Source: Deltaproteobacteria bacterium (GTDB lineage: Bacteria > Desulfobacterota > DSM-4660 > Desulfatiglandales > B25-G16). From it: 33,770 bases of DNA. Shown here piece by piece: positions 16,628 through 33,375 of the stretch. Below the pieces are notes generated by a model, which saw nothing but the letters and a program-made list of their open reading frames with translations, had not been told where the DNA came from and ran no database searches. The stretch is from the NCBI GenBank assembly GCA_020349945.1, contig CP070704.1, positions 643,243-677,012 on the forward strand, written 5' to 3'. The number at the start of each line of letters is the position of its first letter. Position 1 is the first letter of the stretch. The position numbers and the translations under genes were made by a program.

Positions 16628-18190
16628 TCACTTGGCATATTCGGTTGCCCTGATTTCTCTTATTACTGTTACCTTTATCTGTCCAGGATAGGTAAGATCT
16701 TTTTCTATCTTCTTTGCTATCTCCCTGCATATCATCGCTGACTCAGAATCATCTACCCTATCACTCTCTACCATTATCCTCAGTTCTCTGCCTGCCTGGA
16801 TTGCATAGGACTTACTAACACCCTTAAAGGACTTAGCTATCTCTTCCATGTCTTCCAGCCTCTTCACATAAGACTCGAACATCTCTCTCCTAGCCCCAGG
16901 CCTTGCACCAGACAGCGCGTCAGCCGCTTGGAGAACTACATCCATTACAGAGGTAGCCTGGACATCCTCATGGTGAGCGGATATCGCGTGAACTACCTCA
17001 TCAGATTCGCCATACTTCTTTGCGAGGTCTGCACCTATAAGTGCGTGTACCCCTTCTACCTCATGGTTTACTCCTTTACCGATATCATGGAGAAGTCCGA
17101 TTCTTTTGGCCCGTTTTGGATCTAACCTTAACTCCGATGCCATTATGCCACACAGGAAGGCAACCTCAAGAGAGTGCTGGAGGACATTCTGAGCATAACT
17201 TGCCCTATATTTCAGCCGACCGATTAATTTAATCAGCTCAGGATGGATACCGTGAACTCCGATATCAAAAGTAGCCTGTTCACCAGCCTCTTTGATATCT
17301 GTCTCGACCTCTCTGCTCACCCTTTCCACAACCTCCTCAATCCTAGCCGGATGAATCCTGCCGTCTTCAATCAATCTTTCCAAGGCTACCTTGGCCACCT
17401 CTCTCCTAATCGGATTAAAACCAGACAACACTACAGCCTCCGGTGTATCATCAATGATAAGATCTATTCCAGTGGCTGCCTCCAGGGCCCTAATATTCCT
17501 GCCTTCTCTTCCAATAATCCTTCCCTTCATCTCATCATTCGGTAAATTAACAACAGATACGCTCTCCTCAGCCACATACTCACCAGCATATCTTTTAATG
17601 GCCAGGGCCAAAATCTCCTGTGCCTTTCTATGAGAGATCTCCCTTGTCTCAGCCTCTATCCTCTTTATGAGTTTGGAGGCCTCATGGCGTGCCTCCGATT
17701 CCATAGAAGAAATAAGCATCTCCTTTGCCTCTGCTGCTGAAATGCCACCAATTCTCTCTAACTTCCGCCTCTCTTCTTCAATGAGACTATTAAATTCTCC
17801 CTTTTTTTCATCCAGATTCTTCTCCCGGTTCACTAAGATCGCTTCCTTCTTTTCAACTAGTGCTTCTCTTTTCTCAAGTTGCTCCATCTTTTTATCCAAG
17901 GTCTCCTCTTTTTGGAACAACCTTCTTTCCTGGCTCTGAAGCTCCTTTCGCCTTGATCTCGTCTCCTCTTCAAAATCGAGCTTCATTTGATAAAGCTTGT
18001 CCTTTGCCTGTAGCTGGGCCTCTTTTCTAATGGTTTCAGCCTGCTTGCTGGCTTCAAGAATAACCTTTCTCGAATAATCTTCTGCAGAATCAAGTTTCTT
18101 CTCTGAGATCTTTTTCCGGACGATGATACCAATCACCGCTCCTGCTATGATTCCTGCCAGTGCAACAATAACTAACTGAGTGGCTACCAT
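16628..18190 (-). CDS. rny: Ribonuclease Y
   Basis: N-terminal TM helix, coiled coil, KH domain ([14 protein letters not shown]), HD domain (LLHDIGK) and C-terminal [12 protein letters not shown]. Confidence 0.97.
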
Positions 18191-18499
18191 ATCTTCATCA
18201 CCGCCTTTTATTTTTTAATATTTTTTAGAGGGAAAAGAGGGGTTGATAGAGGCTAAAGGGAAGGACAGGTAACTCTCTGCTCGGTAAAGCCTAATTACAC
18301 ACGGGGCTCTACATGGTAACTATAAGAAAATATGAACACTGCAAGCCTATTACCTGCATACGAGTTATTTCTGAAATAATAACGTATTTATGCTGCGCTA
18401 TTTCTACCAAAGATAGTAATGTTTTCGCCTGTTTTTATTATAAAGTCTGGTAACAATTTTTTCCTCAGCCCTAGACTATCAATCCACCCTTTATTCTTT

Positions 18500-18683
18500 G
18501 TTTCCCCCGCTCCAATGCCGTGTCAGCAGCTCTTTTTGAACCTGATCTGTACCAGGTGGGTGTTCCGTTACCTCATTAGGTCTTTTCCACTATCCAAAAA
18601 ACACACAAAGGCAAGAGGGAGCTCCCTTTTCCGTTACTGTTAGCTCAAAAATCTTCCACCAATCACGAACATAGCAGGGGAAC
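18500..18683 (-). ncRNA. ssrS: 6S RNA
   Basis: About 184 nt directly after zapA, the canonical position. Ends pair (gttcccctgc / gcgggggaaac). Contains 6S-like segments tgttcgtg, ttgagc, gggagc, cccacc, aggttcaa and acacggca. Confidence 0.85.
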
Positions 18684-18686
18684 GAT

Positions 18687-18977
18687 TTAGCTCAATACCA
18701 TATTCAGGCCTTGGATTAACCTTTGAGACCTGTTGTTGATTTCAGTTAATAGATCCTCCTTTTCTTTTATGAGTTGAAAATAATCGCCTGCTATATCGAG
18801 GGCAGCTAAAATAGCTGTCTTATCATCGGATAATCCCTTTTTGGAACCGCTTATCTCTTTCAGCTTCTTGTCTACATATGCTGCCACCTTTAGTATCTGT
18901 TCCCTCTCATCAGGACCTCTTACAGCATATTCCCTATCCCTTATTCTGATTTTGACCTTCTCAACCATGGCAGTCAT
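18687..18977 (-). CDS. zapA: Cell division protein ZapA
   Basis: VKIRIRDREYAV, VAAYVDKKL and AILAALDIA followed by a coiled coil; precedes 6S RNA. Confidence 0.92.
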   Translation of the reverse strand: MTAMVEKVKIRIRDREYAVRGPDEREQILKVAAYVDKKLKEISGSKKGLSDDKTAILAALDIAGDYFQLIKEKEDLLTEINNRSQRLIQGLNMVLS

Positions 18978-18986
18978 CCCTTAATG

Positions 18987-19211
18987 TCATAAGTCAAATT
19001 CTTCTATCTTTTCTAAGAGGGTTACTATCTTCCTTCGAACAAGATCTCTATCAGCTTTCAACATCTCTACCTCGTTGGTAAGCGAGTCGATCTTCTCCTC
19101 TAAGTTAATCTTCTCTTCCCTGAGAGAACTCACCAGCGAGATAAAGGACTCGATCTTCTGTTCTAATAGACCAAACTGCCTTAATTCGTCTAATCCCATA
19201 TAGGTCTTCAA
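18987..19211 (-). CDS. zapB: ZapB-like coiled-coil cell division protein
   Basis: Short pure coiled coil (LEQKIE...LREEK...VRRKIVTLLEKI) upstream of zapA. Start may be TTG 19211 or ATG 19199. Confidence 0.75.
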   Translation of the reverse strand: MKTYMGLDELRQFGLLEQKIESFISLVSSLREEKINLEEKIDSLTNEVEMLKADRDLVRRKIVTLLEKIEEFDL

Positions 19212-19318: not shown

Positions 19319-19483
19319 TCAGATAATTTTAAGAAGGCGTAAGATAAAAAAAAGGATCCCGACAACCATGCAAAATATGGCACAGATCTGGGCTATCAAG
19401 AATAGGTAAAACAATTTCGTCTTGGCATCACTATCCCCTTGATTAGCCCTGTTGCTTTTGTTTAACTCAAGTCTGATGGTCAT
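19319..19483 (-). CDS. Small hypothetical protein with a C-terminal TM helix (54 aa)
   Basis: ATG at 19483 lies 1 nt after the subunit D stop (TGA-T-ATG). Hydrophilic N-terminus, then LFYLFLIAQICAIFCMVVGILFFIL. Confidence 0.5.
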   Translation of the reverse strand: MTIRLELNKSNRANQGDSDAKTKLFYLFLIAQICAIFCMVVGILFFILRLLKII

Positions 19484-19484
19484 A

Positions 19485-20135
19485 TCATATGCCTTGCTTT
19501 CTTGCCTCAAGGGAGGCCTTGATCTTCTTTAATCGCAAAAAGCTCTCCCTCTCTATCTCCTCCATCCTCATCTCTATATGTTTAATCGTTGCGTTGAGCC
19601 TGGGGATAACAATGTATTCCAGGGCATTAACCCTTCTTTTTGTCTTTTCCGCTTCTAGGGCAATCCTCCTGACAGACTCCTCCACCTCCGCTAGCCTCAC
19701 AATCAGCAAAAGGGACTCCTCAAAGTTTTTCGCGGCATCATCAAGTTTTGCTGTCGTACCCAAAAAGCCGTATCCCCTTTCATTGATCTTCCTGACCACA
19801 TCCTGGATTTTCATAATAGGCAGTGAGACGCCCATTATGTTTTTAGTGGTAAACTCCAGGCCTATATCTCTTAGCGTTACGCCGCTTATCTGTTCTAAAT
19901 CCCGAGATCCCAACAAAACTTCGGCCATTAAAAGGTTGTGAAAGGCAATACCTAAATTTTCCTCTACCCTCATTCGTGCATCCTTATATTCCTTAATCAC
20001 CACCATGAACTCGGAGATCAATGCATCCCTCTTCTCCTTTAAAAGTTTGTGCCCTTTGTCAGCGAGCTTCGCCCTTTTTTTGAGCCTTAATAATTCCATC
20101 CTTGTCGGCTTGATGTTTTGTAGGATCTCTGCCAC
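19485..20135 (-). CDS. ntpD: A/V-type ATP synthase subunit D
   Basis: Motifs KPTRMELL, KGHKLLKEKRDAL, NIMGV and KTKRRVNALEYIVIP; GTG start abuts the subunit B stop. Confidence 0.96.
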   Translation of the reverse strand: MAEILQNIKPTRMELLRLKKRAKLADKGHKLLKEKRDALISEFMVVIKEYKDARMRVEENLGIAFHNLLMAEVLLGSRDLEQISGVTLRDIGLEFTTKNIMGVSLPIMKIQDVVRKINERGYGFLGTTAKLDDAAKNFEESLLLIVRLAEVEESVRRIALEAEKTKRRVNALEYIVIPRLNATIKHIEMRMEEIERESFLRLKKIKASLEARKQGI

Positions 20136-21557
20136 TTACTGTTCTCCTGCCTTGACTTGAGATCCCTTCTTGTAATATTGCTTAATATATTTCTCATCTA
20201 TCCTTTTTAGCTCTCCCGCTGGGAGCATTGAGAGAAGTTCCCACCCCAAATCGAGTGTTTGTTCAATAGTCCTATTTTCATCAGCTCCCTGATTGACAAA
20301 CCTCTCTTCAAAAATATCTGCAAACCTTAAATTGAGGCGATCCCTTTCGCTTAACGCCTCCTCTCCCACAACTGCAACGAGGCTTCTGACATCCCTTCCT
20401 TCAGCATAAGCGGAATAGCATTGGTCAGACACACCCAAATGATCTGCCCTTGTTCTCCCCTCGCCTATGCCTTCATTCATAAGCCTCGACAGACTGGGCA
20501 GAACGTCTACGGGAGGGTAAACTCCCTTTCTGTGCAACTCACGAGAGAGTACAAATTGCCCCTCAGTTATATATCCTGTAAGGTCAGGTACAGGATGTGT
20601 TATATCATCATCTGGCATAGAGAGAATCGGCATCTGAGTGATGGAGCCTTTTTTTCCTCTGATCCTTCCTGCCCTCTCATAATTGCTTGCTAAATCAGTA
20701 TACATATATCCCGGATATCCTCTTCTCCCAGGAACTTCTTCCCTTGCCGATGAAATTTCCCTCAGGGCCTCACAGTAATTCGTCATATCTGTGAGTATAA
20801 CCAATACATGGGTGTTGTAATCAAAGGCGAGAAACTCCGCGGCTGTAAGGGCCATCCTTGGAGTAATAATCCTCTCAATGGCTGGATCATCCGCCAAATT
20901 GATAAAGGAAACGATCCTTTCTAGAGCGCCAGTTGATTCAAAGCTATTCATGAAAAAGTTGGCCTCTTCATGGGTTATCCCCATACCGGCAAAAATTACA
21001 CTAAAAGGCTCCTCTGAACCCAAAACTTTAGCCTGTCTTGCTATCTGGGCAGCAAGTTCATTGTGAGGTAATCCAGAGCCCGAAAAAATTGGAAGCTTTT
21101 GCCCCCTCACTAATGTATTCATTCCATCAATGGTGGATACACCAGTTTGGATAAATTCATTCGGATAGGCCCGTGCTGTCGGATTTATAGCCGCACCTGT
21201 GATTGGCAATCGAGCCTCCGGAATGATCTCAGGACCACCATCAATCGGTCTACCCAAACCATCAAAGGATCTTCCAAGGATCTCCTTGGAAAGTGAGATC
21301 CTCATGATGTCCCCTGAAAATCTGACTCTTGTCTGTTCTGTATCAAGTCCTCTTGTGCCCTCAAAAACTTGGACGACGGCCACATTCTCCTGTGACTCCA
21401 AAACCTGACCCATTCTGTTGCCACCTTCAGGTGTGCGGATATAAACGAGCTCTGCATATGCCACCTCCTCCACGCCTTCGACAATCATCAGAGGCCCTGC
21501 AACCTGCGTAACCGACCTGTACTCCCTTGCTTTTATATCCTTGGCCTTCTCCTTCAT
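20136..21557 (-). CDS. ntpB: A/V-type ATP synthase subunit B
   Basis: Motifs [35 protein letters not shown] and [15 protein letters not shown]. Confidence 0.97.
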
Positions 21558-23323
21558 CTTTGATTCCTCAAAGATTCAAACTCACCCGCGATAGACTTGA
21601 TTACCTTCTCATATCTCCGTGGAAAATCTGGGTTTGGTATATACTTCATTCGAGCTATCTCATCCTTGATCTTCATTGCTGTTATCCTGCTCGCCACTAT
21701 GCCTGACTCAATTGCCCCTTTGACCTCTTGATAAAACCTCATAATCACCTTGAGCATTAGATATTGCTTCTCTTTAGAGCAATAGGAATCTATTTCGTGA
21801 TAGGCATGTTGCTGAAGATAATCTTCTCTAATCATCCTTGCCACCTCCAAAAGGGCCCTATCTGATTCCGGCAATGCGTCCTGACCAACCAACTGGACAA
21901 TCTCTTGTAGCTCGGCCTCTTTCTCCAGAACAGCCATCATTTCTCCCCTTAGGGTTTGAAATTCCCTGTCTATGTTCTTATCATACCAGGGTTTCACAAA
22001 ATCCAGATAGAGTGAATAACTCGTCAACCAGTTGATGGCAGGAAAATGCCTCCGGTCTGCTAGGTTTGTGTCTAATGCCCAGAATGCACTAACCACCCTC
22101 AAGGTATTTTGCGCAACCGGTTCAGAGAAATCACCTCCAGGAGGAGATACCGCTCCAATAATCGAAACTGATCCAAATCTCTTTTCTCCCCCCAAGGTCA
22201 CTACCCTTCCTGCCCTTTCATAGAAGTCAGCGAGCCTGGTGCCCAAATAGGCCGGAAACCCCTCCTCGCCTGGCATCTCCTCCAGCCTTCCTGAAATCTC
22301 TCTCAATGCCTCAGCCCACCGTGACGTTGAGTCAGCCATCAAGGCTACATTATATCCCATGTCCCTGTAGTACTCGGCAATGGTAACCCCTGTGTAGATA
22401 GAGGCCTCCCTTGCTGCCACTGGCATGTTGGAGGTGTTGGCAATCAACGTGGATCTCTCCATCAGCTTTTCCCCGGTGTTTGGATCGTCCAACTCTGGAA
22501 AGGTCAGCAAGACCTCTGTCATTTCGTTTCCTCTTTCTCCACAGCCAACGTAGACGACAACCTGTGAATCGGCCCACTTTGCCAACTGATGTTGGCTAAC
22601 AGTTTTACCAGTTCCAAAGCCTCCAGGAATAGCGGCTGTGCCGCCTTTGGCTATAGGGAAAAAAGTATCATAAATCCTCTGACCAGTTAGTAGTGGCACC
22701 TCTGGGTCGAGCTTTTCTTTAAAGTGCCTTCCTACCCTTACCGGCCACTTTTGTTTCATTGTTATTGCTTGTCTCTCTCCTCTATCATCAAGGATAGCCA
22801 TAGGCTCATCAACCGTAAAACTTCCACTTTTAATCTCTATTACCCTTCCATGTATGCCTGGCGGGACCATTATCTTATGCGATATCACCTTTGATTCCTG
22901 AACCTCTCCTATAATATCTCCCTCTACAAGCCTATCACCTCTTTTGACTGTTGGTGTGAAGTCCCACTTTTTTTCAGGATCCAGGCCGGGAACATTAACC
23001 CCCCTGGTTATATAATCCCCAACCTGGTTCTTGATGCCAAGCAAGGGCCGCTGTATTCCATCATAGAAGTTGGTAATAATTCCCGGACCAAGTTCCACTG
23101 ATAGGGGAGCACCTGTTCTTGCGACCTCTTCCCCTGGTTTAAGGCCAGTAGTATCCTCGTAAACCTGGATATAGGCCAAATCCTCTATGAGCTTTATTGT
23201 TTCTCCCATCAGGCCTTCCTGGCCCACCCTGACAACCTCGTACATCTCGCAACCTCTCATGTCTTTAGCGATTACCAGTGGACCAGCAATACTCTTGATC
23301 TTTCCTATCTTATGATCTGCCAT
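21554..23323 (-). CDS. ntpA: A/V-type ATP synthase catalytic subunit A (589 aa)
   Basis: Start reassigned to ATG 23323 ([15 protein letters not shown]), which has an AAGGAAG RBS and removes the overlap with subunit F. P-loop [29 protein letters not shown] and [10 protein letters not shown]; non-homologous region present. Confidence 0.97.
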
Positions 23324-23333
23324 TTCTTCCTTG

Positions 23334-23657
23334 CTATGCCGTCTCGAATCCGACAGTCCTTTTAATAAGCTTCCGCATGGAGTCGATCTTTTTGACCATG
23401 GGACCACTGCTATCCGGGATCTCCACAACTATAGGCATTATGCCCTTCCTAAATCTACTCACCTCTTCTAATATACTCCTTATCTGCTCAGCTACCTTTT
23501 CGGTAACCAATATTATGCCGATACCCTCGTCAAATAGGCCCTTCAGTATCCCTCTGACATCTTCCTGCCTGATATCCTCCATCAGCAAGGTTCTCCTTAT
23601 ACCTGCGAGCCTAAAGCCATAGACTGTATGCCTGTCTCCGATTAAGGCGATTTCCAT
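23334..23657 (-). CDS. ntpF: A/V-type ATP synthase subunit F
   Basis: Motifs [32 protein letters not shown] and IKRTVG. Confidence 0.93.
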
Positions 23658-24697
23658 CAGTTCCTAATGAGTGATTCTCTGATTTCATCCCTATTCAGAG
23701 CAACCTCGGTGCTCCTAACAATGGCCAAAAGATTCCCTACCTCTTTCTCCTTTGACACAAGAAACCCAATAAGAGGCCCTAGGCCGAACGGCTTCTTTTT
23801 CCTAATGTCTTCTGCCTTTCTAACCACCATATTATCGAGGGCCTGTTCAAAGGATAAAATAGAACTGGTTCTTTCATGCTCAGCCAGAGCACGTAAAAGA
23901 GGTTCAAGATATATGGTATCTTCCAGAAGGGATATGAGGCCGGGCAGATCCTCTTCGTCAAAAGCGGGAAGCAGTTCATTCAACAATGTGCACTCATGGA
24001 TCAAAAAGGGCTCGATATCCTCTAAGGGGAGGCCGTTATCTTTTGCCCTCAGAATAATCTTAAGGTTATGCGTTTCAACACTTGTCCCTATAAAATCTCC
24101 GAATTCCTTCATGCCCTTTAGGTTCAAGACCTTTATCCATAGATCTTCCCAGAGAATCTTATCCAACGCAGCCTCTAAAAAAAATAGGTTTTTAGCCACA
24201 TGATATCTTGCCACACCATCCTTTAAAGACTGGTAAGGGGTTTTTGCCAAGAGGCCAACAAAGCTATCCATGCCCTCTGCATCAGTGAGGGCCCTAAAAA
24301 ACATAAAGTCTAACTCACCTCCCTCAACAAAGGAATCTAGTATTTCTTCTTTCCTTAAACCTCCCTGTATCCCCCTCATAACCGTTCTCAAATTGATAAC
24401 ATCCCACTTTCTCAAGAGGTATTCCTTTATCAACCATGCCCCTTTAGGAATAATCTTGGAGATCTCCCTCCCTAACGAGGAGAATTCCTTTAGAATGGCA
24501 TTCTCTAATTCCCTGGCCTCACTAATTGCCCTTTCTGATAAATAAGGGAAATAATCTGTTCCCTCTAAAAGTGAGGCTATCTCTCCAGGAGATTTACATC
24601 CCCATAGATCCTCCCACCTCGCTGGAGAAATAAACTTGCCCTCTTTTGCCATTACTTTTGCATTAACATACAGATATGAAAGAGCATCTCGAATCAT
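23657..24697 (-). CDS. ntpC: A/V-type ATP synthase subunit C (d)
   Basis: Motifs YVNAKV, LEGTDY, WDVINLRTVMR, NLKIILRAK and KEKEVGNL; 346 aa, between E and F. Confidence 0.9.
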   Translation of the reverse strand: MIRDALSYLYVNAKVMAKEGKFISPARWEDLWGCKSPGEIASLLEGTDYFPYLSERAISEARELENAILKEFSSLGREISKIIPKGAWLIKEYLLRKWDVINLRTVMRGIQGGLRKEEILDSFVEGGELDFMFFRALTDAEGMDSFVGLLAKTPYQSLKDGVARYHVAKNLFFLEAALDKILWEDLWIKVLNLKGMKEFGDFIGTSVETHNLKIILRAKDNGLPLEDIEPFLIHECTLLNELLPAFDEEDLPGLISLLEDTIYLEPLLRALAEHERTSSILSFEQALDNMVVRKAEDIRKKKPFGLGPLIGFLVSKEKEVGNLLAIVRSTEVALNRDEIRESLIRN

Positions 24698-25344
24698 AGC
24701 CTATCGCCAAAGAGGATCTTAGCCACATCTACCCTTATGCTCTCTTTCAGCCGGTTCAATTTAGCCTCAAGGGTGTTGTCAACCTCCACCTGCTTCTCCA
24801 AATCCCTCACAACTACGCCTCCGAGGCACTTTATGGTCTTATCAGTTCTGGTCAAAGAGATGTCTCTCCCTGTCCTTTTCTTGACAAATGTAGTTAATTC
24901 TCCCAACATACGCTTGTTGAAGGTTCTGCTGTCCCTCTGGTTAAAGGCCAACTCCAGTTTGCTTCCGGCAACAACCTCAGAGGCAGAACCAATCAGGTTA
25001 AACATTATATTCTTATATACAAAACTATCCCGCTTCCCCTTCTCGGCTAACTCTCCTAAGGCCTTTTTGGCCCCCTCAAATGAAGCAGCAATTGCTTCTT
25101 CCTGGGCATCCATCCTCTTTCTTCGAACATCAAGTTTGGTTTCGGCAATGATTCTTTCTCCCTCAAGCGATGCGGCTCTCCTGCCATTTGAGAGAATTCT
25201 CTCAGTCTGCCTCTCTGCTTTCTCCTGAGCAGCCTTCCTGATCTTACCGGCCTCTTCTTGGGCCTTAAGAAGTATCTCAGATATCTCCTTCTCGGCCTCG
25301 GCCTCTATATGGGATATTATTTTATCAACACCTTCATCTGACAT
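24694..25344 (-). CDS. ntpE: A/V-type ATP synthase subunit E
   Basis: N-terminal helical stalk (DKIISHIEAEAEKE) and C-terminal LGGVVV...VDNTLEAKL...AKILF. Confidence 0.92.
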   Translation of the reverse strand: MSDEGVDKIISHIEAEAEKEISEILLKAQEEAGKIRKAAQEKAERQTERILSNGRRAASLEGERIIAETKLDVRRKRMDAQEEAIAASFEGAKKALGELAEKGKRDSFVYKNIMFNLIGSASEVVAGSKLELAFNQRDSRTFNKRMLGELTTFVKKRTGRDISLTRTDKTIKCLGGVVVRDLEKQVEVDNTLEAKLNRLKESIRVDVAKILFGDRL

Positions 25345-25391
25345 AATTGCCCTCTATTAAACAGAAAAGCACCCCGGCATACGTATTCTAT

Positions 25392-25877
25392 TTATCCGCC
25401 CATAATCTTGGATCCTACAAAGATCAGGATAGCTATCAGGAGACCAAAAATAGCAAAGGTCTCTGCCATGACAGCAAGGACAACTGCCTGACCAAAGGTT
25501 TCTGGCCTTTTCGCTACAGCACCCATGCCACTGGCAGATATAGCGCCCTGGGCTATTGCCGTAAAACTACTTAAACCGACAACGATCCCTCCTCCAAGGG
25601 CGGCGTAACCCATCCCAATAGGGATCTCCTTGATCTCTCCGCCAAGTACACCCACCCCTATAAGAATCAAAACAGCACCCAGGAAACCATAAATTCCCTG
25701 TGTTTGCGGTAAGGCCTGGAGAACTAATACAGGCCCAAACTTTCTCGGATCCTCTGATATAACACCGGCCCCTGCAACACCAGCCAAACCAACTCCGATG
25801 CCGGAGGCAATGGCAGCCAAACCCATAGAAACTGCTGCCCCCATAATTGCTAAAATTACTCCCATCGATAATTCCAT
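25392..25877 (-). CDS. ntpK: A/V-type ATP synthase subunit K (c), duplicated 4-TM proteolipid, Na+-type
   Basis: Two hairpins: LQALPQTQGIYGFL (no Glu) and MAETFAIFGLL (Glu139). Gln110 present. Strong GAGGGAGG RBS. Confidence 0.95.
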   Translation of the reverse strand: MELSMGVILAIMGAAVSMGLAAIASGIGVGLAGVAGAGVISEDPRKFGPVLVLQALPQTQGIYGFLGAVLILIGVGVLGGEIKEIPIGMGYAALGGGIVVGLSSFTAIAQGAISASGMGAVAKRPETFGQAVVLAVMAETFAIFGLLIAILIFVGSKIMGG

Positions 25878-25896
25878 AACAATACCTCCCTCTTAT

Positions 25897-26066
25897 TACT
25901 ACAACGGCATTCCTTAAATGCTGTGCTGGGGATGTCTTCACAAGGCGATCCACCCATGGCGGGCCATATTCCTCGTGGTTACGAGGAAGGAAGAGAAAAT
26001 TGGTCGAATCACCTCAAAGTGGCTTACTTAGTGAGCTGTCATAAAGATAAAAATCCCGCTGTAGTA
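25897..26066 (-). other. Candidate structured RNA filling the subunit I - subunit K spacer
   Basis: 11-bp closing stem 26056-26066 / 25897-25907 (one G-U in mRNA sense) and an internal perfect 8-bp hairpin at 25969-25988. Confidence 0.5.
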
Positions 26067-28013
26067 TTATTTAATCTCTACAATTCCAACCTTCATCTCA
26101 AGGGGTGTGAACTGTGTTCCCCCACTTTCATAAAATTTTGTAAAAAACTCTACATAATGCAATCTAAGTCCATGAACAAAGCTGCTCATGGCGTTAATGA
26201 CAAAATTGAACAGGTGCCCGATAAAAAAGACAATAACCGCGAGGATTACCCCTATTGAACCAACCATGTAAAGCATGCCGGAGAGTACATTAACTGTCAT
26301 TGCTATTCCTGTTGTACACAACCCCAAGGCCATTAGCCTGGCATAGGAGAGGATATCCCCCATAAATCCAGTTACTTTAAACATGGCCATGGCCTTATGT
26401 CCCATTAAAAGTAATATGAGGGACGCCACTATAAATATTAGGCCTACTGACTTGTAGCCGACTAAAAATAAAAAAAGGCCCGGCTGGACAAATAGGAACC
26501 AGAGGTTTTCACTAACGGCCTTCCATCTCTGTCGCCTTTTAAGATTATCCAAAACATTAATCACTACACCGGTGTTTACATGGAGGAGACCAATAATTAA
26601 GGCAATTAACAAAAAGGCAGTAACATGAACCATAGGATCAAATACCTGCATACCTGCCAATACCGATAACTTGCGCCCAAAGCCACCAAACCATCCCCCA
26701 GAAAGTGCGCCTATAATAATTGTAGTAACTCCTGCTGATGAAAGGATGATTCCTCCATCCCTTATTGTCTGATTATATCTTCCTCCCCCGCGTATTATTG
26801 ATAGACCCAAAAAAAGGGCTATTACCCCATACAGTGCATCGGTTAACATGATTGAAAAAAACAGGAGGAAACCCGGAACTAAAAATAGGGTTGGATCTAC
26901 GCCATTATAGGCCGGCAACCCATAAAGGCGCGTTAACAGCTCAAAACTCCTGACGAACCGAGGGTTTTTTAGCTGTACTGGCACATTATCCCTCTCCTCT
27001 GGATCCGACAGCTCAACCACACATGCCTCCCGGCAGACCTCTCTTATCTCCTGAGCAGCTCTTGCAGCTGAGTGTCTCGGAACCCAACCCTCAATAGCCA
27101 CAACATGTTGCATCTTTGCAAGCTTATTCTGGCTTTCTTCTCTCTGTTTCTCAATCATTAACAATTCCTGGTACTTTTGAACCTCATCCCGCCATCTCTT
27201 AGCTATATCAACCAGGGTCGCCTCTGTTCTTATCTTCTCCTCGTTTAATGCCATCAATCTTTTAGTAATGGAATCTATTGCCTCTTTTGGTTTTCCTTGC
27301 TGGCCCTCTATTTCAACCCTTTCCCAATTCATTCGGCGAAGATTAGCTAATACCAGCGAGGCTTGTTCTTTAAGGCAGATTACTATTGTTACTAACTTGT
27401 TCCCAGATGCATCCCTTGCCTCGAGGTAGAAGCTATCATCAGTCAAATCCCTTAAGCTCTCCGTTATATTTTCTATCTGCTCCTTTGGTACAATACCTAA
27501 AAATACAGATAAAAAATCTGAATCTCCAATATCTGCTAGATCTATCTCTAAGGGTGAAATCAGGTCCAATAATCCGCTAACCCTCTCTAATTCTAAAGTC
27601 TCTTCTTCAATCTTCTCTATCTCGCTAACAGGTCCTTCTACCTCTTCTTTGATCTTTTCTATAATCTCGTCAACGCTATCGGCAAGCTCCCTACCGTAGA
27701 TCTCTCTGGTTTCAAGCTTTTTCGGCGGCAGCGGGGCAAAAATTCCCTTTATAAAACCCTCCTTTGGTTCAGGTTCATAGCGCTCAAAAAGATCTAGAAA
27801 GCGATTTACCGTGATATTTTGTGCAGCTATGTTTCTGATATTTGGTGAGAAAGGGTGAGGTCTTAGCAGGTTGTTCCAATGAGGGTCAGCGAGTTTTTCA
27901 GAATAATCATTAAGATGGATAGTACCGAGCTCCTGCAGCCTTTTAATTGTTTCATATCTATAGCCCTCTAATACGAGTATTTCTATCCTCTTCATCCGGG
28001 CTGGTCTTAGCAT
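26067..28013 (-). CDS. ntpI: A/V-type ATP synthase subunit I (a)
   Basis: MLRPARMK N-terminus, IEGWVP, YGLPAYNGVDPT, essential Arg in DILSYARLMALGL, and HGLRLHYVEFF. Confidence 0.96.
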   Translation of the reverse strand: MLRPARMKRIEILVLEGYRYETIKRLQELGTIHLNDYSEKLADPHWNNLLRPHPFSPNIRNIAAQNITVNRFLDLFERYEPEPKEGFIKGIFAPLPPKKLETREIYGRELADSVDEIIEKIKEEVEGPVSEIEKIEEETLELERVSGLLDLISPLEIDLADIGDSDFLSVFLGIVPKEQIENITESLRDLTDDSFYLEARDASGNKLVTIVICLKEQASLVLANLRRMNWERVEIEGQQGKPKEAIDSITKRLMALNEEKIRTEATLVDIAKRWRDEVQKYQELLMIEKQREESQNKLAKMQHVVAIEGWVPRHSAARAAQEIREVCREACVVELSDPEERDNVPVQLKNPRFVRSFELLTRLYGLPAYNGVDPTLFLVPGFLLFFSIMLTDALYGVIALFLGLSIIRGGGRYNQTIRDGGIILSSAGVTTIIIGALSGGWFGGFGRKLSVLAGMQVFDPMVHVTAFLLIALIIGLLHVNTGVVINVLDNLKRRQRWKAVSENLWFLFVQPGLFLFLVGYKSVGLIFIVASLILLLMGHKAMAMFKVTGFMGDILSYARLMALGLCTTGIAMTVNVLSGMLYMVGSIGVILAVIVFFIGHLFNFVINAMSSFVHGLRLHYVEFFTKFYESGGTQFTPLEMKVGIVEIK

Positions 28014-28017
28014 AATC

Positions 28018-28329
28018 TCAACTCAATAATGAACGCAAAATGAATTTCTTAGCCTTCCCTAGGTTCTTTTGGGCCTCTTTCCTAAGTTGCTCGATTTCCC
28101 TTTTCCATTCACTGGCTATATCCTGGCACACCTTCCTTGCCTCATCTCCAGCATCTTCCCTCATTCTCTCTGCTTGCCTTTGCGCATCTCTCATCCTTTC
28201 CACCAACAATTTCTCTGCTTGTGCCCTCGCTGTCTCAGCTACCGCAATGGCCTCCCCTTTGGCCTTCTCTATCCTCTCTTTTGCCTCAGTCTCTGCCTTC
28301 TTTATCCTCTGTAACGATTCTAGGATCAA
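28018..28329 (-). CDS. A/V-type ATP synthase peripheral stalk subunit H (G)
   Basis: Ala/Glu/Lys-rich helix of about 103 aa (LQRIKKAETEAKERIEKAK), first gene before subunit I. TTG at 28329 is preferred because it has a GAGGT RBS; the ORF track gives 28341. Confidence 0.85.
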   Translation of the reverse strand: MILESLQRIKKAETEAKERIEKAKGEAIAVAETARAQAEKLLVERMRDAQRQAERMREDAGDEARKVCQDIASEWKREIEQLRKEAQKNLGKAKKFILRSLLS

Positions 28330-28377
28330 CCTAAACCTCAATCGCGTGCCAAGATCTTACTAAGAGAAAAATGGTCG

Positions 28378-28779
28378 TTATTTCAAAACGGAAAGGCCTT
28401 CCGTTTTCGTTGGAGATACGGCAAGATCCTTCTCTATCTCCTCTCCCAGATCTTGCATCTTGCAACTTCCCTCAAAGATAACCCCTTCCTTAATAACCAA
28501 TTTTGGGGTTTGAATATTGCCTATAAGTTTGCCTGGGACATTAATCTCGATCTTCTTTTCTGCAAATATATCCCCCTGAACCTCCCCGCTTATTATCATA
28601 TCAGCAACATGTATCTGGGATTTTATAATTGCACTTTCCCCTACTATCAAGGTTCCACTAGAAAAGATTTCGCCAGAAAACTTTCCATCGATCCTGACAG
28701 CTCCAGTGAAGGAAAGCTTGCCCTCAAATTCTGTGTCCTTGCCTAAAAAGGCGTTTATCTCATCCTTTGGTTTCTTCAT
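28378..28779 (-). CDS. Bactofilin (polymer-forming cytoskeletal protein)
   Basis: Beta-helix pattern FEGKLSF..AVRIDGKFSGEI..LIVG..GEVQGDI..GNIQTPKLVIKEGVIFEGSCKM; AAAGGAGG RBS. Confidence 0.92.
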   Translation of the reverse strand: MKKPKDEINAFLGKDTEFEGKLSFTGAVRIDGKFSGEIFSSGTLIVGESAIIKSQIHVADMIISGEVQGDIFAEKKIEINVPGKLIGNIQTPKLVIKEGVIFEGSCKMQDLGEEIEKDLAVSPTKTEGLSVLK

Positions 28780-28894
28780 CGGTTGATACCTCCTTTAAAT
28801 ATCCGCCCGCGGCTTAATAGCACGGCCCTCTCAGTGATGGCAAGAAAAATTATAGCCATCAGATGACCTTCGAAAATCTCAGCCTTGCCTAATA

Positions 28895-30001
28895 TCATTC
28901 CTGAAACATAAACCTCCTCATACTTATATTCATTATCAAGCCCATAGCAGCCATAGTGGAAATTACAGACGATCCGCCATAGCTAAACAGAACCAATGGT
29001 ATTCCGACTACTGGGAGTAAACCGGTTACCATGCTGACATTTATAGCTACGTGCCAGAAAATCGATGCAGCAATACCTACGACAATAAGGGCGCCGAACT
29101 TATCTTTGCTATTTTTGGCTATATTGAGGCACCATAGTATTAAGAATAAGTACAGCAACAAGAGCAGTGCAGAACCTACAAAGCCCCACTCCTCTGCCAA
29201 AACAGAAAACGAAAAATCGGTATGTTGTTGTGGAAGAAAATTTAACCTTGTCTGGGTCCCTTTAAGAAAGCCTTTCCCCCAAAGAAGGCCTGAACCAATA
29301 GTGATCTTCGACTGGGTAACATGATAGGCGGCACCTAAGGGATCCAGATCAGGCCTTAAAAATGCTATTATGCGTCTCTTCTGGTATTCCTCGAGGATGA
29401 TCCAAAAAAAGGGCGCTGAAAGAAGTGCCGTGAATAAAAATATCAGCATTGACTTCCAGTTTACATTAACAAAGATAATAATTGAGAAGGAAACTATGAG
29501 TAACATCAGAGCCGTTCCCAGGTCAGGCTGATGGACTATGATAACGAAAGGGACGGCAATCAAGGTTAACGGTCTCAATAAATCCCTAACTCGGTAATTT
29601 CCCATCCTTTCTAGTTCAGAAAAATATTTAGCGAGAACAACAACAAGAGATATCTTCACCATCTCAGAAGGTTGGACAGAAAAATAACCAAAACTCAACC
29701 AGCGCTGAGAGCCATGTGTAACCTTGCCCATCTTGAGGGAAGCGAACAGAAAGATCACGGTGATAAAAAACAATGGATAAGCAAGCCGACCTAGAATATG
29801 GTAGTCAAAAGTTGTCATCAAAAGAAGAATCAAGAAACCTATTCCAAACCAACAGATTTGTCTAACGTAAATCTGGCTCTGCCCCATAGATCTAATCGTG
29901 TAGGTAGCACTGTAAAGATTAAAGATGCTCAGCAACCCTATCAATATCAATATAGCTAAAAGTATCCAGTCAAAGTTATTGATCAATCGACGATCGAACA
30001 T
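28895..30001 (-). CDS. rodA: Rod shape-determining SEDS protein RodA
   Basis: Motifs GSQRW, QPSE, QPDLGTA, FLPQQHTDF and GIPLVLFSYGGSS; follows mrdA. Confidence 0.96.
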   Translation of the reverse strand: MFDRRLINNFDWILLAILILIGLLSIFNLYSATYTIRSMGQSQIYVRQICWFGIGFLILLLMTTFDYHILGRLAYPLFFITVIFLFASLKMGKVTHGSQRWLSFGYFSVQPSEMVKISLVVVLAKYFSELERMGNYRVRDLLRPLTLIAVPFVIIVHQPDLGTALMLLIVSFSIIIFVNVNWKSMLIFLFTALLSAPFFWIILEEYQKRRIIAFLRPDLDPLGAAYHVTQSKITIGSGLLWGKGFLKGTQTRLNFLPQQHTDFSFSVLAEEWGFVGSALLLLLYLFLILWCLNIAKNSKDKFGALIVVGIAASIFWHVAINVSMVTGLLPVVGIPLVLFSYGGSSVISTMAAMGLIMNISMRRFMFQE

Positions 30002-31887
30002 TCCAGCTTGGTACTCCTTTCATGCGCCTCCCAAAATCTCCCTTTCTCCTGCTCAGGCCTCAACTTATCAAAATAACTTTCTAGTATATCTCTTGCGATG
30101 GGTGCCGCTATGCTTCCTCCTTGACCACTATGCTCTATAAGAATGGCTAACGCTATCAATGGATTTTCAGCAGGGGCAACAGCCGCAAACCATGCGTGAT
30201 CTCTAAATTCATATGGAACATCTCTTTCTTCTACGGAGCTCTCTTCCGCGGGTAAAGCAATTACTTGCGCAGTACCTGTCTTACCAGCCACCCTTATCTG
30301 ATCAAGCCTTGCGCTCTTTCCTGTTCCATGAGGCTCATTCACAACAGCGATAAGGGCCTTTTTTACCAGTTCCATGTTTTCTTTTCTTAGACTCCAGCGC
30401 CTTACCATATCAGGCTTCAATTGAAAAACCCCGTTCTTATCCTCTCCCCCTATCCATTTCGTTACCTGTGGCCTCAACAGATCCCCCCCATTAAAAAGGG
30501 CTGATATAAATCTTACTATTTGAATAGGCGTCACAAGGATAAAGCTTTGTCCAACAGACACACACAATGTCTCCCCTTCCTGCCATGGAACATGCCATCG
30601 CCTTAACTTCCAGGCCCTATCTGGAATAAGGCCTGGTTTCTCATCTCCTAATTCAAGGCCTGTCAAACAGCCTAGGCCAAGCCTTTTGGCATACTTTGCA
30701 ATGGTATCAATGCCCAGCGCCTGCCCCACTTGATAAAAGTAGACGTCACATGACTCAACTAACGCCCTGTGTAAATCAACGTAACCATGCCCTCCCTCTT
30801 TCCAATCGCGATATGTCCTGCCTTGAAAACTATAACTTCCTCCACAAAAGATCTCTTCATCGGGATCAATTATCCCTTCTTCTAATCCTGCCAAGGCTAC
30901 CACTACCTTGAAAAGAGAACCTGGTGGATACTGTCCTGAGATCACCCTATTCTGTAACGGAAAGTGGGGATTAGAGATCAATCTTTCCCATCCTTTCTTA
31001 TCCATCCCTTTCGCAAAATCATTGGGATTAAAAGCCGGGGCGCTAGCTATAGCTAATATCTCTCCACTACTTGGATTCATGGCAACAATAGCACCCACTT
31101 TACCATTGAGGGATCTCTCGGCCAACATTTGAAGATCCTTATCTATCGTAAGAAAAACATTAAACCCTGGCTCTGCCGCCTTTTGGTAAAGCACTCTCAG
31201 TATTCGCCCTGAGGCATCTACCTCATACTGTTGCCCTCCCCTACTGCCATTCAGATGTCGGTGCCATTTCTTCTCTATGCCACACTTACCGACAAAATCG
31301 CCAAGTTTATTTTCCTTATATTCCTGCCCAGCAAGCTGTTCTCTATCAATTTCCCCAAGATAACCAATGAGATGGGCAGCGAGGGTATTGTATATGCAAT
31401 GCCTTCTAGGCTTCGCTTCTATAATCACACTTGGCATGCTAAAGATGTTAGTCTCTATTCTGGCTAACTCATCCCTTGTAAGGTCCTTTTTTATGTAAAC
31501 CGGATTAAATGGATTCCATCTTAGGGCACTTTTTGTCTTCTCTTTAGCGGTTAGGCTATCGATTTCGATCAATCTGCCCAGATCTTTTATCAAACCATCA
31601 AGGTTTCTGACTTCCCCTGGAATCGCACCCAAGATAAATGAAGGCCTATTATCGACTAGTAGTTGACCATTCTTGTCAAAGATTGATCCTCTATAGGGTA
31701 AAACGTCCCTTAAGTCTATTCTATTATTTTCTGATTGTATCCTATATTTGGGCCCATTAATGATCTGTAAAGACCACAACCTTACAAACAAAACGCCAAA
31801 TAGAATAAGGACAAAGAATGTTAACCTTGTTAGGCGTTTCTGATAAATCTCTGTCTCTACGGAATCAAAACCTGAACGACCTACCAT
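29983..31887 (-). CDS. mrdA: Penicillin-binding protein 2
   Basis: RGSIFDKNG, SxxK (GSLFK), SCD and GKTGTAQ; located in the mre operon. Confidence 0.96.
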   Translation of the reverse strand: MVGRSGFDSVETEIYQKRLTRLTFFVLILFGVLFVRLWSLQIINGPKYRIQSENNRIDLRDVLPYRGSIFDKNGQLLVDNRPSFILGAIPGEVRNLDGLIKDLGRLIEIDSLTAKEKTKSALRWNPFNPVYIKKDLTRDELARIETNIFSMPSVIIEAKPRRHCIYNTLAAHLIGYLGEIDREQLAGQEYKENKLGDFVGKCGIEKKWHRHLNGSRGGQQYEVDASGRILRVLYQKAAEPGFNVFLTIDKDLQMLAERSLNGKVGAIVAMNPSSGEILAIASAPAFNPNDFAKGMDKKGWERLISNPHFPLQNRVISGQYPPGSLFKVVVALAGLEEGIIDPDEEIFCGGSYSFQGRTYRDWKEGGHGYVDLHRALVESCDVYFYQVGQALGIDTIAKYAKRLGLGCLTGLELGDEKPGLIPDRAWKLRRWHVPWQEGETLCVSVGQSFILVTPIQIVRFISALFNGGDLLRPQVTKWIGGEDKNGVFQLKPDMVRRWSLRKENMELVKKALIAVVNEPHGTGKSARLDQIRVAGKTGTAQVIALPAEESSVEERDVPYEFRDHAWFAAVAPAENPLIALAILIEHSGQGGSIAAPIARDILESYFDKLRPEQEKGRFWEAHERSTKLECSIVD

Positions 31888-31934
31888 GATAAGCCATCAA
31901 AAAATAACGATAAACAAACCAGAGGTGCCTCCTT

Positions 31935-32474
31935 TTAGGCATAATCTCGATTCTCTTTTCCTCTTACCAGATCTAGGAAATAGAACAAAAATGGGGCAAT
32001 CATGCCTGTTATGAGAGCAGAAATACATACCGAAATAAAGCTTATCGAAGGGATGCGTTGCCCTAAAGGGAAAATGCTCATGATAATAAGGAGAAGGGAC
32101 CACTTAGCCACAACAAAAAAGGCCACCAATAACATTGAGGTCCTGATTTTGGTGAAATCCAAAAACTGGCGACAGTAATTAACTCCAAGAAGGATAGCAG
32201 AATAGGTAAAAGCAAACAAACCAAGCTGACATGGAGCGAATATGTCTGTCAGCACCCCCATAAAAAAAGCCAGACAACCGGCCCTAAAGTTTTGATCCTG
32301 GCCGATGAGATATATGAGGAAGATAGGAATTAGATCGATATCAACCCATTCAATCCCTATAAGATGGGTTATGCCCCCCCTTAAAATTACAACGATCCCG
32401 CATGTTAGCCAGATTAAGGCATGGAAAAATACATTTTTCTGTTTCCCTAGCCCTAAATTAACCCTAATACCCAC
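31935..32474 (-). CDS. mreD: Rod shape-determining protein MreD
   Basis: Highly hydrophobic, about 180 aa, with IDL and FFMGVLTD..GLFA motifs; between mreC and mrdA. Start uncertain. Confidence 0.85.
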   Translation of the reverse strand: MGIRVNLGLGKQKNVFFHALIWLTCGIVVILRGGITHLIGIEWVDIDLIPIFLIYLIGQDQNFRAGCLAFFMGVLTDIFAPCQLGLFAFTYSAILLGVNYCRQFLDFTKIRTSMLLVAFFVVAKWSLLLIIMSIFPLGQRIPSISFISVCISALITGMIAPFLFYFLDLVRGKENRDYA

Positions 32475-32505
32475 TCCACTACCGCGATAAGATTAGCTAT
32501 GTCGC

Positions 32506-33351
32506 TTATGGCATCTCAGGCTCTCTTAAAGGCACAAAACCTGATCTCAAAATTATGAGAACCTCCTCTAACTTAGAGAACTCCACAGCGGGGATTACCC
32601 TAACATCCTTGAATAGCTTATTGGGCGAATCAGTAATCTTTCTAACCTTACCCAGATAAAGACCCTTGGGGAATACCCTTCCCAACCCTGAGGTTACAAT
32701 AGTGTCGCCTGCTTTTATCTCACCTGTTTTTATCACATAATCCAAATAACATTCGTTTGATCCGCTTCCTTTTAGCATCCCTCTCCCCCTTGACCTCTGA
32801 ACCAACCCGTCAACAGCACTGTTTTGATCTGTAATCAATAATGCCTGGGCGTAATTAGGGGAGACAGAAACTATCCTTCCGACAACTCCCTCTGAATTAA
32901 CAACCGGCATGTTTATCGTAAGACCATCGTTTTCCCCTTTATCTATCATGATAGATTTAAACAACCCGCTTGAATCCCACCCGATCACCCTTGCCGCCAA
33001 AAGAGGCTCATTCGTATTCTCTTGAAAGTTTAGGAGGTTCCGCAGGCGCTGATTAGCCAACAAGAGCTCTTGATACTTACTATTTTCGAGCTTGAGGAGG
33101 TTTATCTCTTTTTTGAGGAGTAAATTCTCTTGGCGTGTTTCAACCAAGGAAAAATAGTCTCTCCATATACCCCTAACTACGGAGATTGTCCCCACAAAAA
33201 ATCTTTGAAATGGGGCGGTCATCTCGACAGCGATCTTTTCTGCCGGATTCCAATCTTGCCCCCTGCCACTGCTAAGAGACAGCAAGATTAGGGATAAGAT
33301 AACGAAGATATAAAAAACCCATTTCGGCCTATGCTCTGGAAAAATGGTCAA
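32506..33351 (-). CDS. mreC: Rod shape-determining protein MreC
   Basis: TM helix, coiled coil (ENLLLKKE, NQRLRNLL), IDKG, GVVGRI and TSGLGRVFPKGL. Confidence 0.95.
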   Translation of the reverse strand: MTIFPEHRPKWVFYIFVILSLILLSLSSGRGQDWNPAEKIAVEMTAPFQRFFVGTISVVRGIWRDYFSLVETRQENLLLKKEINLLKLENSKYQELLLANQRLRNLLNFQENTNEPLLAARVIGWDSSGLFKSIMIDKGENDGLTINMPVVNSEGVVGRIVSVSPNYAQALLITDQNSAVDGLVQRSRGRGMLKGSGSNECYLDYVIKTGEIKAGDTIVTSGLGRVFPKGLYLGKVRKITDSPNKLFKDVRVIPAVEFSKLEEVLIILRSGFVPLREPEMP

Positions 33352-33375
33352 TTATTTTAAACCCGAACTTTTCAA

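Follow-up and report, generated by a model that had tools for sequence, protein, structure and literature searches.

Introduction

Few cellular machines are as conserved as rotary ATP synthases, and the replacement of an F-type enzyme by an A- or V-type one is usually inferred from deep phylogeny only. The A/V-type ATPases of Thermus/Deinococcus, Enterococcus and other bacteria were acquired from archaea; we know of no "before" state in the same chromosomal slot for these lineages. Here, we describe a 33,770-nt stretch of a deltaproteobacterial genome, G000, in which a complete A/V-type ATPase operon lies between the same flanking genes that enclose the F-type F1 cluster in sister families. 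This whole stretch, G000:C1:643243-677012 on a single 2.53-Mb contig, is called the window below.

In-situ displacement of atp operons is described for ammonia-oxidising Thaumarchaeota, some genomes of which hold both types, in a published report (Wang et al. 2019, ISME J, PMC6863869). Our search of the literature, supplements aside, revealed no account of the present exchange, and this includes work on syntrophic sulfate reducers and Desulfatiglans-related bacteria. Our verdict on the window is an ancient, family-wide displacement in situ. In the scenario that we regard as quite probable, the ancestor of the family acquired an archaeal-type operon that displaced the native F1 cluster in situ, the native F-type genes were lost, and a foreign F-type operon came later to about half of the family. 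The gene content of the operon, the synteny of its slot, its restriction to one family, its archaeal placement, the foreign F-type operon and the conserved Na+ ligands carry this scenario. What is new here is an exchange across domains and enzyme types (F to A) within a conserved slot, with genomes of the ancestral state still extant, followed by a patchy regain of a foreign F-type enzyme.

One slot, two types of ATPase

Nine A/V-type ATPase genes in the order H-I-K-E-C-F-A-B-D are tightly packed on the minus strand at 19485-28341 of the window. According to Pfam and the V/A-type models of NCBIfam, they compose the complete subunit set A, B, D, F, C (d), E, H (G-like), I (a) and K (c), and stops or frameshifts interrupt none of the nine open reading frames (ORFs). 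The preliminary description, made from the letters of the window, had already recognised a complete and co-oriented operon of this order; Pfam and NCBIfam recovered all nine genes at the same positions, and the protein strings that it quoted, a 19-letter string of B and IKPTRMELL of D, are present as well. The products would build an A1Ao machine in which the A3B3 head is combined with a D/F/C shaft, E and H form the stalks, I is the stator and K subunits, each a double hairpin, make up the ring.

Forty relatives, 24 from the same family (f1) and 16 from five sister families, were searched with subunit A, RodA, RNase Y and F-type beta, and 16 loci were fetched and mapped by tblastn with G000 proteins. 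The six maps from sister families (G034, G035, G030, G025, G037 and G029) read mreB-mreC-(mreD)-mrdA-rodA-bactofilin-[F-type genes]-zapB-zapA-rny. In G034, Pfam identified the genes of the slot as b', b, delta, (alpha, gamma, beta) and epsilon, that is, atpF'FHAGDC. Judged by coordinates, F1 genes adjoin rny and/or rodA in 13 of the 16 sister-family genomes, and the remaining three (G026, G031 and G039), being split over contigs, do not contradict the pattern.

Family f1, a family of Desulfobacterales-like bacteria, presents another picture between the same genes. Its six maps (G004, G020, G013, G014, G002 and G011) invariably read rodA-bactofilin-[H-I-K-E-C-F-A-B-D]-zapB-zapA-rny, and subunit A lies within a few kb of rodA and/or rny in 17 of the 20 relatives with an A orthologue; the other three (G003, G006 and G015) are fragmented and again do not contradict the pattern. 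A public contig of a metagenome-assembled genome (MAG) named "uncultured Desulfobacteraceae bacterium" (L057) has the same arrangement as the family loci. Overall, the same conserved flanks hold F-type genes in sister families and the A-type operon in the family. That Desulfobacterota commonly carry atpF'FHAGDC between bactofilin and zapB had been proposed, and it is borne out by the Pfam analysis of G034 and the six maps. The further proposal that glmU belongs to this slot does not hold for the taxonomic order studied, since atpC and zapB are separated by gaps of only ~120-360 bp in the sister families.

Such a locus might in principle be an assembly chimera, or a contaminating archaeal contig joined to bacterial flanks, and G000 (90.7% complete) does have an estimated contamination of 4.97%. 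However, both the bactofilin-H and the D-zapB junctions are seen again in L057 and in 17 of 20 family genomes that were assembled independently, and the GC content, which ranges from 0.41 to 0.49 in the window, is continuous over both operon junctions. The recurrence of the junctions in 17 other assemblies excludes misassembly, and we give the chimera practically no credence.

Distribution of the operon and the exception of G008

The A orthologue, at 84-100% identity, was found in 29 of 34 family genomes. Those without it are G008, G001 (55% complete), G018 (80%), G021 (73%, with a fragment held) and G042 (78%). Among the 209 genomes of the order it is confined to the family, with no case among the 175 genomes outside; V-type A subunits do occur in 41 of these 175, at only 41-62% identity, and are unrelated. 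A protein search with subunit A returned 120 rows, all of them 87-98% identical copies of the same lineage.

G008, which is 95% complete, is the family member that has F-type genes in the slot and no A-type operon. The beta subunit from its slot is 79-83% identical to the betas of other families in the order (out-families), which are 83-99% identical among themselves. In the RpoB tree (30 rows), the family received a support of 100, and its base is a trichotomy of G008, genus g7 and the rest (support 94). The simplest reading, although not a proven one, is a single displacement after G008 had split off.

The opposite order of events has to be weighed at this point. The A-type operon might already have occupied the slot in the ancestor of the whole family, G008 having regained an F-type enzyme there from a relative in the order. 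The RpoB trichotomy leaves room for such a history, and the unusual gene order of the G008 slot operon (Table 1) would suit it, as would a beta more distant from the out-families than these are from each other. On the other hand, two precise in-slot displacements would be needed instead of one, and the divergence of the G008 beta and alpha scales with that of RNase Y (64-68%), as vertical descent predicts. We consider this order of events improbable and keep to the single displacement.

G008 is peculiar in other respects too. Its slot operon is rearranged, and the Fo genes have been added to it. A 324-amino acid (aa) ORF with four ATP-synt_C domains, a fused multi-hairpin c, stands in its slot beside a normal 93-aa c. 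The same genome carries an N-ATPase-like operon (beta, then a, b, alpha and gamma) at L054:2730-9503 (G008:C51), the beta of which is ~52% identical to both F-type lineages.

Fate of the native F-type enzyme

A search of G000 for the alpha/beta nucleotide-binding domain gave seven matches: A and B of the window, A/B of a second V-type operon (0.834-0.836 Mb), alpha and beta of an F-type operon (1.429-1.432 Mb) and a weaker match at 0.265 Mb. The F-type operon lies 0.79 Mb from the window operon. Its beta is 63-67% identical to the native betas of the G008 slot and the out-families, its alpha 59-65% and its gamma 37-42%. Betas 85-88% identical to that of G000 were found in seven genomes of families f17 and f20 among 401 genomes of the phylum. 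Because beta is thus so much closer to f17 and f20 than to the native type, while RNase Y of G000 and G008 is 80% identical, the F-type operon of G000 is, as judged by sequence identity, foreign and derived from a different family within the phylum.

Remnants of native atp genes were found nowhere in G000 or in the window by tblastn with the slot proteins of G008 and G034, and the only Fo a-subunit gene of G000 lies inside the foreign operon (L009). With no remnants, a single Fo a gene and a present F operon that is xenologous, the earlier suggestion that the native F-type enzyme is gone from G000 proved correct. The broader suggestion, a replacement of the main F-type enzyme, stands only in part: the native F-type genes were displaced from the slot, but G000 was not left with the A-type enzyme alone.

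The relatives are more telling. A beta of the G000 type (89-94% identity) occurs in 12 of the 24 family relatives, G008 has the native type, and 11 have none. The preliminary description had taken an intact F-type operon elsewhere as the mark of an addition; G000 does have one, yet it is itself a xenologue, and F-type gamma was found in 0 of 10 among the 11 relatives without F-type beta. The Fo a-subunit family was likewise found in 0 of the 5 F-less relatives searched for it. F-less relatives include G011 (93% complete), G017 (92%) and the single-contig G004. Overall, the native F-type enzyme is gone from the family except in G008, and a foreign F operon at another site was later gained, or kept, by roughly half of the family. 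In the remaining half, no rotary ATPase was found apart from the A-type enzyme and, in a few genomes, the second V-type operon.

Regarding the other ATPases of G000, two-component-system genes flank the F-type operon. The second V-type operon encodes a single-hairpin K with an N-terminal extension and an A subunit 56% identical to that of the window; this A (54-56%) occurs in 5 of 34 family genomes (G000, G004, G013, G014 and G024).

Origin of the A-type operon

Named archaeal and bacterial sequences for comparison were those of the best 80 of 600 stretches, an arbitrary sample. Within it, subunit A is 64% identical to that of Hadarchaeota, 63% to Archaeoglobi and 58-61% to Clostridia; in an exhaustive search of 50%-identity representatives, its best relative is at most 61% identical. 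Many of the top matches are intein-bearing proteins of ~1,100 aa, the named ones coming from Picrophilus, Lokiarchaeota and Oscillospiraceae. Subunit A of the window has no intein.

In the tree of subunit A (116 rows, LG+G4), the family formed a clade with a support of 100, on the archaeal side of a split supported at 95. In the A+B tree (55 rows x 1051 columns, LG+C20 with posterior mean site frequencies, PMSF), the family (100) was placed beside Hadarchaeota (91), apart from a 23-row bacterial clade (100). Forcing the family to join this bacterial clade made the A+B likelihood 26.9 log units worse, with a p of 0.018 in the approximately unbiased (AU) test. The tree of seven subunits (I+E+C+F+A+B+D; 61 rows x 2352 columns; LG+G4) was divided by a split with a support of 100 into 33 Bacteria on one side and 22 Archaea together with the family on the other. 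Here the family belonged to a group (97) with four Methanobacteriaceae-type rows, three of which are so labelled and one labelled Methanobacteriota only, and one Thermoplasmatales row; Hadarchaeota, whose operon is split, are left out of this tree.

The separate subunits tell a similar story. The best sampled matches are from Methanobacteriaceae for I, E, C, F, B and D, from Hadarchaeota for A and of the Bacillota type for K. Identities to the sampled Methanobacteriaceae are 28-31% for I, 71-74% for B and 49-50% for D. The best archaeal B is 76% identical, among 301 genomes of the phylum holding those Methanobacteriaceae, and sampled bacteria reach 60-66%.

It might nevertheless be supposed that this is an ordinary bacterial V-type operon of the Bacillota/Synergistota-type clade, passed on from a bacterium. 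The order I-K-E-C-F-A-B-D is common to that clade, the best K matches are of its kind, and in the sample A is nearly as close to Clostridia as to any archaeon. Yet the seven-subunit split sets the bacterial rows against archaea and family together, the AU test speaks against joining them, B is nearer to archaea (70-76%) than to the sampled bacteria, and archaea supply the best sampled matches for I, E, C, F and D. We therefore hold a bacterial source to be very improbable. The archaeal, euryarchaeal-like ancestry suggested in the preliminary description is in agreement with the A, A+B and seven-subunit trees as well as with the matches of single subunits.

The same description had also thought an acquisition from archaeal neighbours possible. 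This cannot refer to a recent event, as the operon dates to the root of the family and no archaeal B among the 301 genomes is closer than the one mentioned above. The stem of the family in the A, A+B and seven-subunit trees measures 0.4-0.5 changes per site. This long stem, an ameliorated GC content and a best archaeal B of such modest identity are the reasons for which we place an ancient acquisition at the family root. Together, the comparisons suggest a euryarchaeote-like donor that is not closely represented and would be related to, but not close to, the Methanobacteriota and Thermoplasmatota of today.

Among the archaeal loci, a Methanomicrobia MAG (L062:5509-21700) carries two aha operons tail to tail, and one of its K subunits is 51% identical to K of the window.

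Predicted Na+ coupling and probable direction of catalysis

The best solved relative of subunit K is NtpK of Enterococcus hirae (PDB 2BL2, E 1.3e-21). The phmmer alignment shows identity at each of the five Na+ ligands of NtpK listed by Mulkidjanian et al. (2008, PMC2359735), namely L61, T64, Q65, Q110 and E139. All eight family K subunits compared have PQTQ, that is, no carboxylate, in the first hairpin and ET in the second. What these residues best predict is Na+ coupling, at one ion for every four helices; the earlier assignment to the Na+ enzymes is supported in so far as K is of the Na+ type with all five NtpK ligands conserved.

Besides its rotary ATPases, G000 has genes for the beta subunit of a decarboxylase of the Na+-pump type (OAD_beta) and for a membrane pyrophosphatase, as well as three NuoLMN-like genes. 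Rnf/Nqr were not found in G000 and are rejected as the Na+ partner there. Neither dsrA nor dsrB was found in G000. Among relatives, dsrA is present in 14 of 16 sister-family genomes vs 4 of 24 from the family (G002, G005, G006 and G007), and all four are F-less. Dissimilatory sulfate/sulfite reduction seems to have been abandoned by most members of the family. A simple rule by which the swap led to the loss of sulfate reduction was considered and rejected: G008, with F-type genes in its slot, also lacks dsrA, and four A-type-only genomes have it.

It is these four genomes that are most informative on the direction of catalysis. Since they carry dsrA and no other rotary candidate was found in them, the A-type enzyme probably works there in the synthesis direction. 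In F-less cells generally, it has to act as the housekeeping enzyme and is most likely a reversible, Na+-coupled ATP synthase. ATP synthesis is known from archaeal and acetogen enzymes that have V-type c subunits, and the A1Ao of Pyrococcus furiosus, a Na+ enzyme whose "V-type" c has one ion site per double hairpin, also makes ATP.

The alternative is an addition without functional replacement, in which the F-type enzyme would be the ATP synthase of G000 and the A-type one an accessory Na+ pump in the old atp site. G000 itself invites this view. Its F operon has gene1, a, c, b, delta, alpha, gamma, beta and epsilon; its K has a single carboxylate per double hairpin and resembles the rotor of a Na+ pump; and a cell without dsrA/dsrB and Rnf/Nqr may live largely by substrate-level phosphorylation. 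Several observations speak to the contrary. In 11 relatives no beta was found, nor gamma or Fo a wherever these were searched for, and the dsrA-bearing genomes among them must be able to make ATP with the A-type enzyme. Moreover, 29 of 34 family genomes have retained the A-type operon vs 12 of 24 with the F operon, and V-type c subunits are compatible with ATP synthesis, as noted above. We find the addition rather unlikely, and functional replacement in the F-less half of the family remains the reading that we prefer.

Proposed course of events

We would like to suggest the following order of events. An ancestor of the family would have taken up the operon from an archaeon. Between bactofilin and zapB, this operon would have taken the place of atpF'FHAGDC; the native F-type genes would then have disappeared altogether, and about half of the family, G000 included, would have come to carry a complete F operon from another family of the same phylum. 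As a conjecture, the swap itself might have proceeded by insertion beside the resident operon and subsequent deletion. Tandem V-type/F-type states do exist, as one is found in an Aminipila MAG of Bacillota (L071:5503-20900), where a V-type operon (I...D) is directly followed by F-type c, b, alpha, gamma and beta on the same strand.

A more far-reaching form of this scenario states that the family swapped F1Fo for an archaeal Na+-coupled A1Ao in the same position, beside the genes of cell shape and division, and that this enzyme is the sole ATP synthase in roughly half of the living species, the dsrA-bearing ones included. We put it forward tentatively, as a plausible reading that falls a little short of being probable.

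A number of points weigh against the scenario, and it is fair to set them out together. All of the trees come from quick searches with support from the Shimodaira-Hasegawa-like approximate likelihood ratio test (SH-aLRT) only, and the sister group of the family varies from Hadarchaeota (91, A+B) to Methanobacteriaceae/Thermoplasmatales (seven subunits). Since the archaeal and bacterial sample is the best 80 of 600 stretches, V-ATPases of the Thermus, Chlamydia and spirochaete types are not explicitly placed in the trees, and the group subjected to the AU test was named after the tree had been seen. The archaeal equivalog cut-offs of NCBI are narrowly missed by A, B, C and H. G008 is not resolved by the RpoB tree as the first branch of the family, and the F-less relatives are MAGs of 68-93% completeness. 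G000 also holds a complete F-type operon and a second V-type operon, and in G000 itself no observation assigns ATP synthesis to one of its enzymes. Finally, the ATP-driven Na+ pump of E. hirae is built in the same way, with a single site for every four helices of its K ring.

If the scenario is true, genomes of the "before" state (G008 and the sister families), of the "after" state and of the "after" state with a foreign F-type operon would allow a stepwise study of the replacement and of the shift to Na+. The exchange is legible directly from synteny, with an F1 cluster or an archaeal operon between the same flanks, and would offer, at the level of a family, a datable example of an operon displaced in situ by a non-orthologous one. 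It would also mean that an archaeal enzyme whose rotor has one site per four helices can sustain a respiring bacterium, which bears on the debate about ATP synthesis with "V-type" rotors. More generally, the ATPase repertoire of the family is in flux: both the foreign F-type operon and the second V-type operon are patchy in occurrence, and G008 has its N-ATPase-like operon.

Annotation of the window and its flanks

The features on which the analysis rests are collected in Table 1.

Table 1. Operon subunits, neighbouring features and related ATPase loci (window positions unless a locus is named)
Feature	Coordinates	Strand	Evidence
Subunit H, peripheral stalk	28018..28341, TTG start 28341 or 28329	minus	Pfam ATP-synt_B 30.3 bits
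Subunit I, stator a-subunit, ion channel	26067..28013	minus	Pfam V_ATPase_I 90.7 bits
Subunit K, double-hairpin (4-helix) rotor proteolipid, 161 aa	25392..25877	minus	Pfam 2x ATP-synt_C
Subunit E, peripheral stalk	24694..25344	minus	Pfam vATP-synt_E 97 bits
Subunit C, d-type rotor socket	23657..24697	minus	Pfam vATP-synt_AC39 183.6 bits
Subunit F, central stalk	23334..23657	minus	Pfam ATP-synt_F 75 bits
Catalytic subunit A, 589 aa from ATG	21554..23323 (ORF could extend to 23428)	minus	Pfam ATP-synt_ab, Xtn, VA_C, N
Non-catalytic subunit B	20136..21557	minus	Pfam
Subunit D, central stalk	19485..20135	minus	Pfam ATP-synt_D 200 bits
54-aa ORF, one predicted membrane helix, possible tenth operon gene	19319..19483	minus	conservation
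Upstream resident flank: mreB (partial, window edge), mreC, mreD (weak), mrdA, rodA, bactofilin	28378..33768	minus	Pfam
Downstream resident flank: zapB, zapA, 6S RNA, RNase Y (rny)	16628..19211	minus	Pfam, Rfam
6S RNA, between zapA and rny	18500-18683	minus	Rfam RF00013, 77.6 bits
Complete F-type operon of G000: gene1 (AtpZ-like), a, c, b, delta, alpha, gamma, beta, epsilon	L009:6037-12955 = G000:C1:1426036-1432954	plus	Pfam
Second V-type operon of G000: 102-aa ORF (no family), C, I, K, F, E, A, B, D	L010:17634-8956 = G000:C1:832955-841633	minus	Pfam
G008 slot F-type genes: delta, alpha, gamma, beta, epsilon, gene1, I, a, fused c, c, b, b'	L041:7428-15830 (G008:C2)	minus	Pfam

With regard to the NCBIfam models, the archaeal ones are the best for A (TIGR01043 ATP_syn_A_arch, 960.8 bits vs a cut-off of 972.15) and for B (TIGR01041 ATP_syn_B_arch, 820.9 vs 844.65), and V-type subfamily models for both subunits pass their cut-offs. 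Subunit A has the A-specific insert PF16886 (ATP-synt_ab_Xtn, 106.8 bits) and the P-loop GGFGTGKT in its translation. Subunit C scored 214.5 bits with AhaC (TIGR02923) vs a cut-off of 240.5, a V-type C model scoring higher, and subunit I reached 572 bits with NF004428, under the cut-off of that model. Subunit D exceeded the 226 cut-off of NF001545 with 266.6 bits. The match of subunit H to AhaH (TIGR02926), its best-scoring model, is weak, 39.2 bits vs 48.5, and H is 51-67% identical across six family loci.

The flanks had been described as mreBCD-mrdA-rodA-bactofilin on one side and zapB-zapA-6S-rny on the other, with which Pfam and Rfam agree, although the zapB call lies under the Pfam cut-off; ftsE/ftsX were also found downstream of the operon. 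The claim that mobile-element genes are absent was confirmed for the 37 window ORFs scanned, none of which belongs to a mobile-element family, transposases and integrases included. Neither junction shows mobile-element genes, repeats or gene remnants.

The gap between bactofilin and H is 36-48 bp, and because of this spacing the operon might be co-transcribed with bactofilin and the upstream cell-shape genes. A promoter scan gave 21 sites vs 20.7 expected. Terminator-like sites numbered 18 vs 10.8 expected, with none at either end of the operon. Public sequencing runs included no listed RNA run and one unclassified run with 0.23 of the sampled words.

The 54-aa ORF starts with an ATG located 1 nt past the stop codon of D (TGATATG). 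It was found between D and zapB in six of six family loci, at 52-76% identity. G008 and the out-family loci gave no significant match to it, and it belongs to no Pfam or NCBIfam family. Of its 15 database homologues, the four with organism names are Deltaproteobacteria/Desulfobacterales MAGs. The ORF weakly resembles small ORFs 1.6-1.8 kb past ahaD in three Methanobacteriaceae loci (e.g. L084:15612-15773), with E 0.06-0.4 in a small database. An archaeal origin was considered on this ground and rejected: the link is not established, and none of the 15 homologues from the large-database search is named archaeal.

The rodA gene of the single-contig genome G004 deserves a separate comment. Its product is encoded in two pieces 1.17 Mb apart, at C1:269611-270204 and C1:1441892-1442761. 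RodA residues 171-368 adjoin the A-type operon and residues 1-290 lie elsewhere, mre-mrdA being missing upstream of the slot. Such a split indicates either a rearrangement breakpoint inside rodA or an assembly error.

Comparison with known systems

The V-type Na+-ATPase of E. hirae shares with the family enzyme the 4-helix K and one Na+ site with all five ligands conserved. The E. hirae enzyme is, however, an inducible pump beside a housekeeping F-type enzyme, whereas the family operon occupies a housekeeping slot, and in many relatives no further rotary ATPase was found; the other family subunits, moreover, are closest to archaeal ones. The P. furiosus A1Ao, with its one ion site per double hairpin, would be a further counterpart of the family enzyme.

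The aha operons of Methanobacteriaceae (L084, L111, L102 and L069) have the same gene order as the family operon. Their K subunits differ: the four Methanobacteriaceae-type K sequences bear a carboxylate in both hairpins (PETQ, P/SETQ), where the family has PQTQ in the first, and the identities of the aha proteins are far too low for a recent donor.

The Thermus/Deinococcus type is another archaeal-type enzyme in a bacterium with the order I-K-E-C-F-A-B-D, and it is sometimes the only ATP synthase (cf. Mahendrarajah et al. 2023, PMC10656485). The family clade represents an acquisition separate from, and not nested in, the sampled bacterial clade, which comprises no Thermus-type sequences.

The closest printed analogue is the exchange in Thaumarchaeota, where both types coexist in some genomes, as they do here. 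There, two A/V-type variants were exchanged within one archaeal phylum; here, an F1 cluster gave way to an archaeal A-type operon, across domains and enzyme types. Unlike in the Thaumarchaeota case, a foreign F-type operon was later gained elsewhere in this family.

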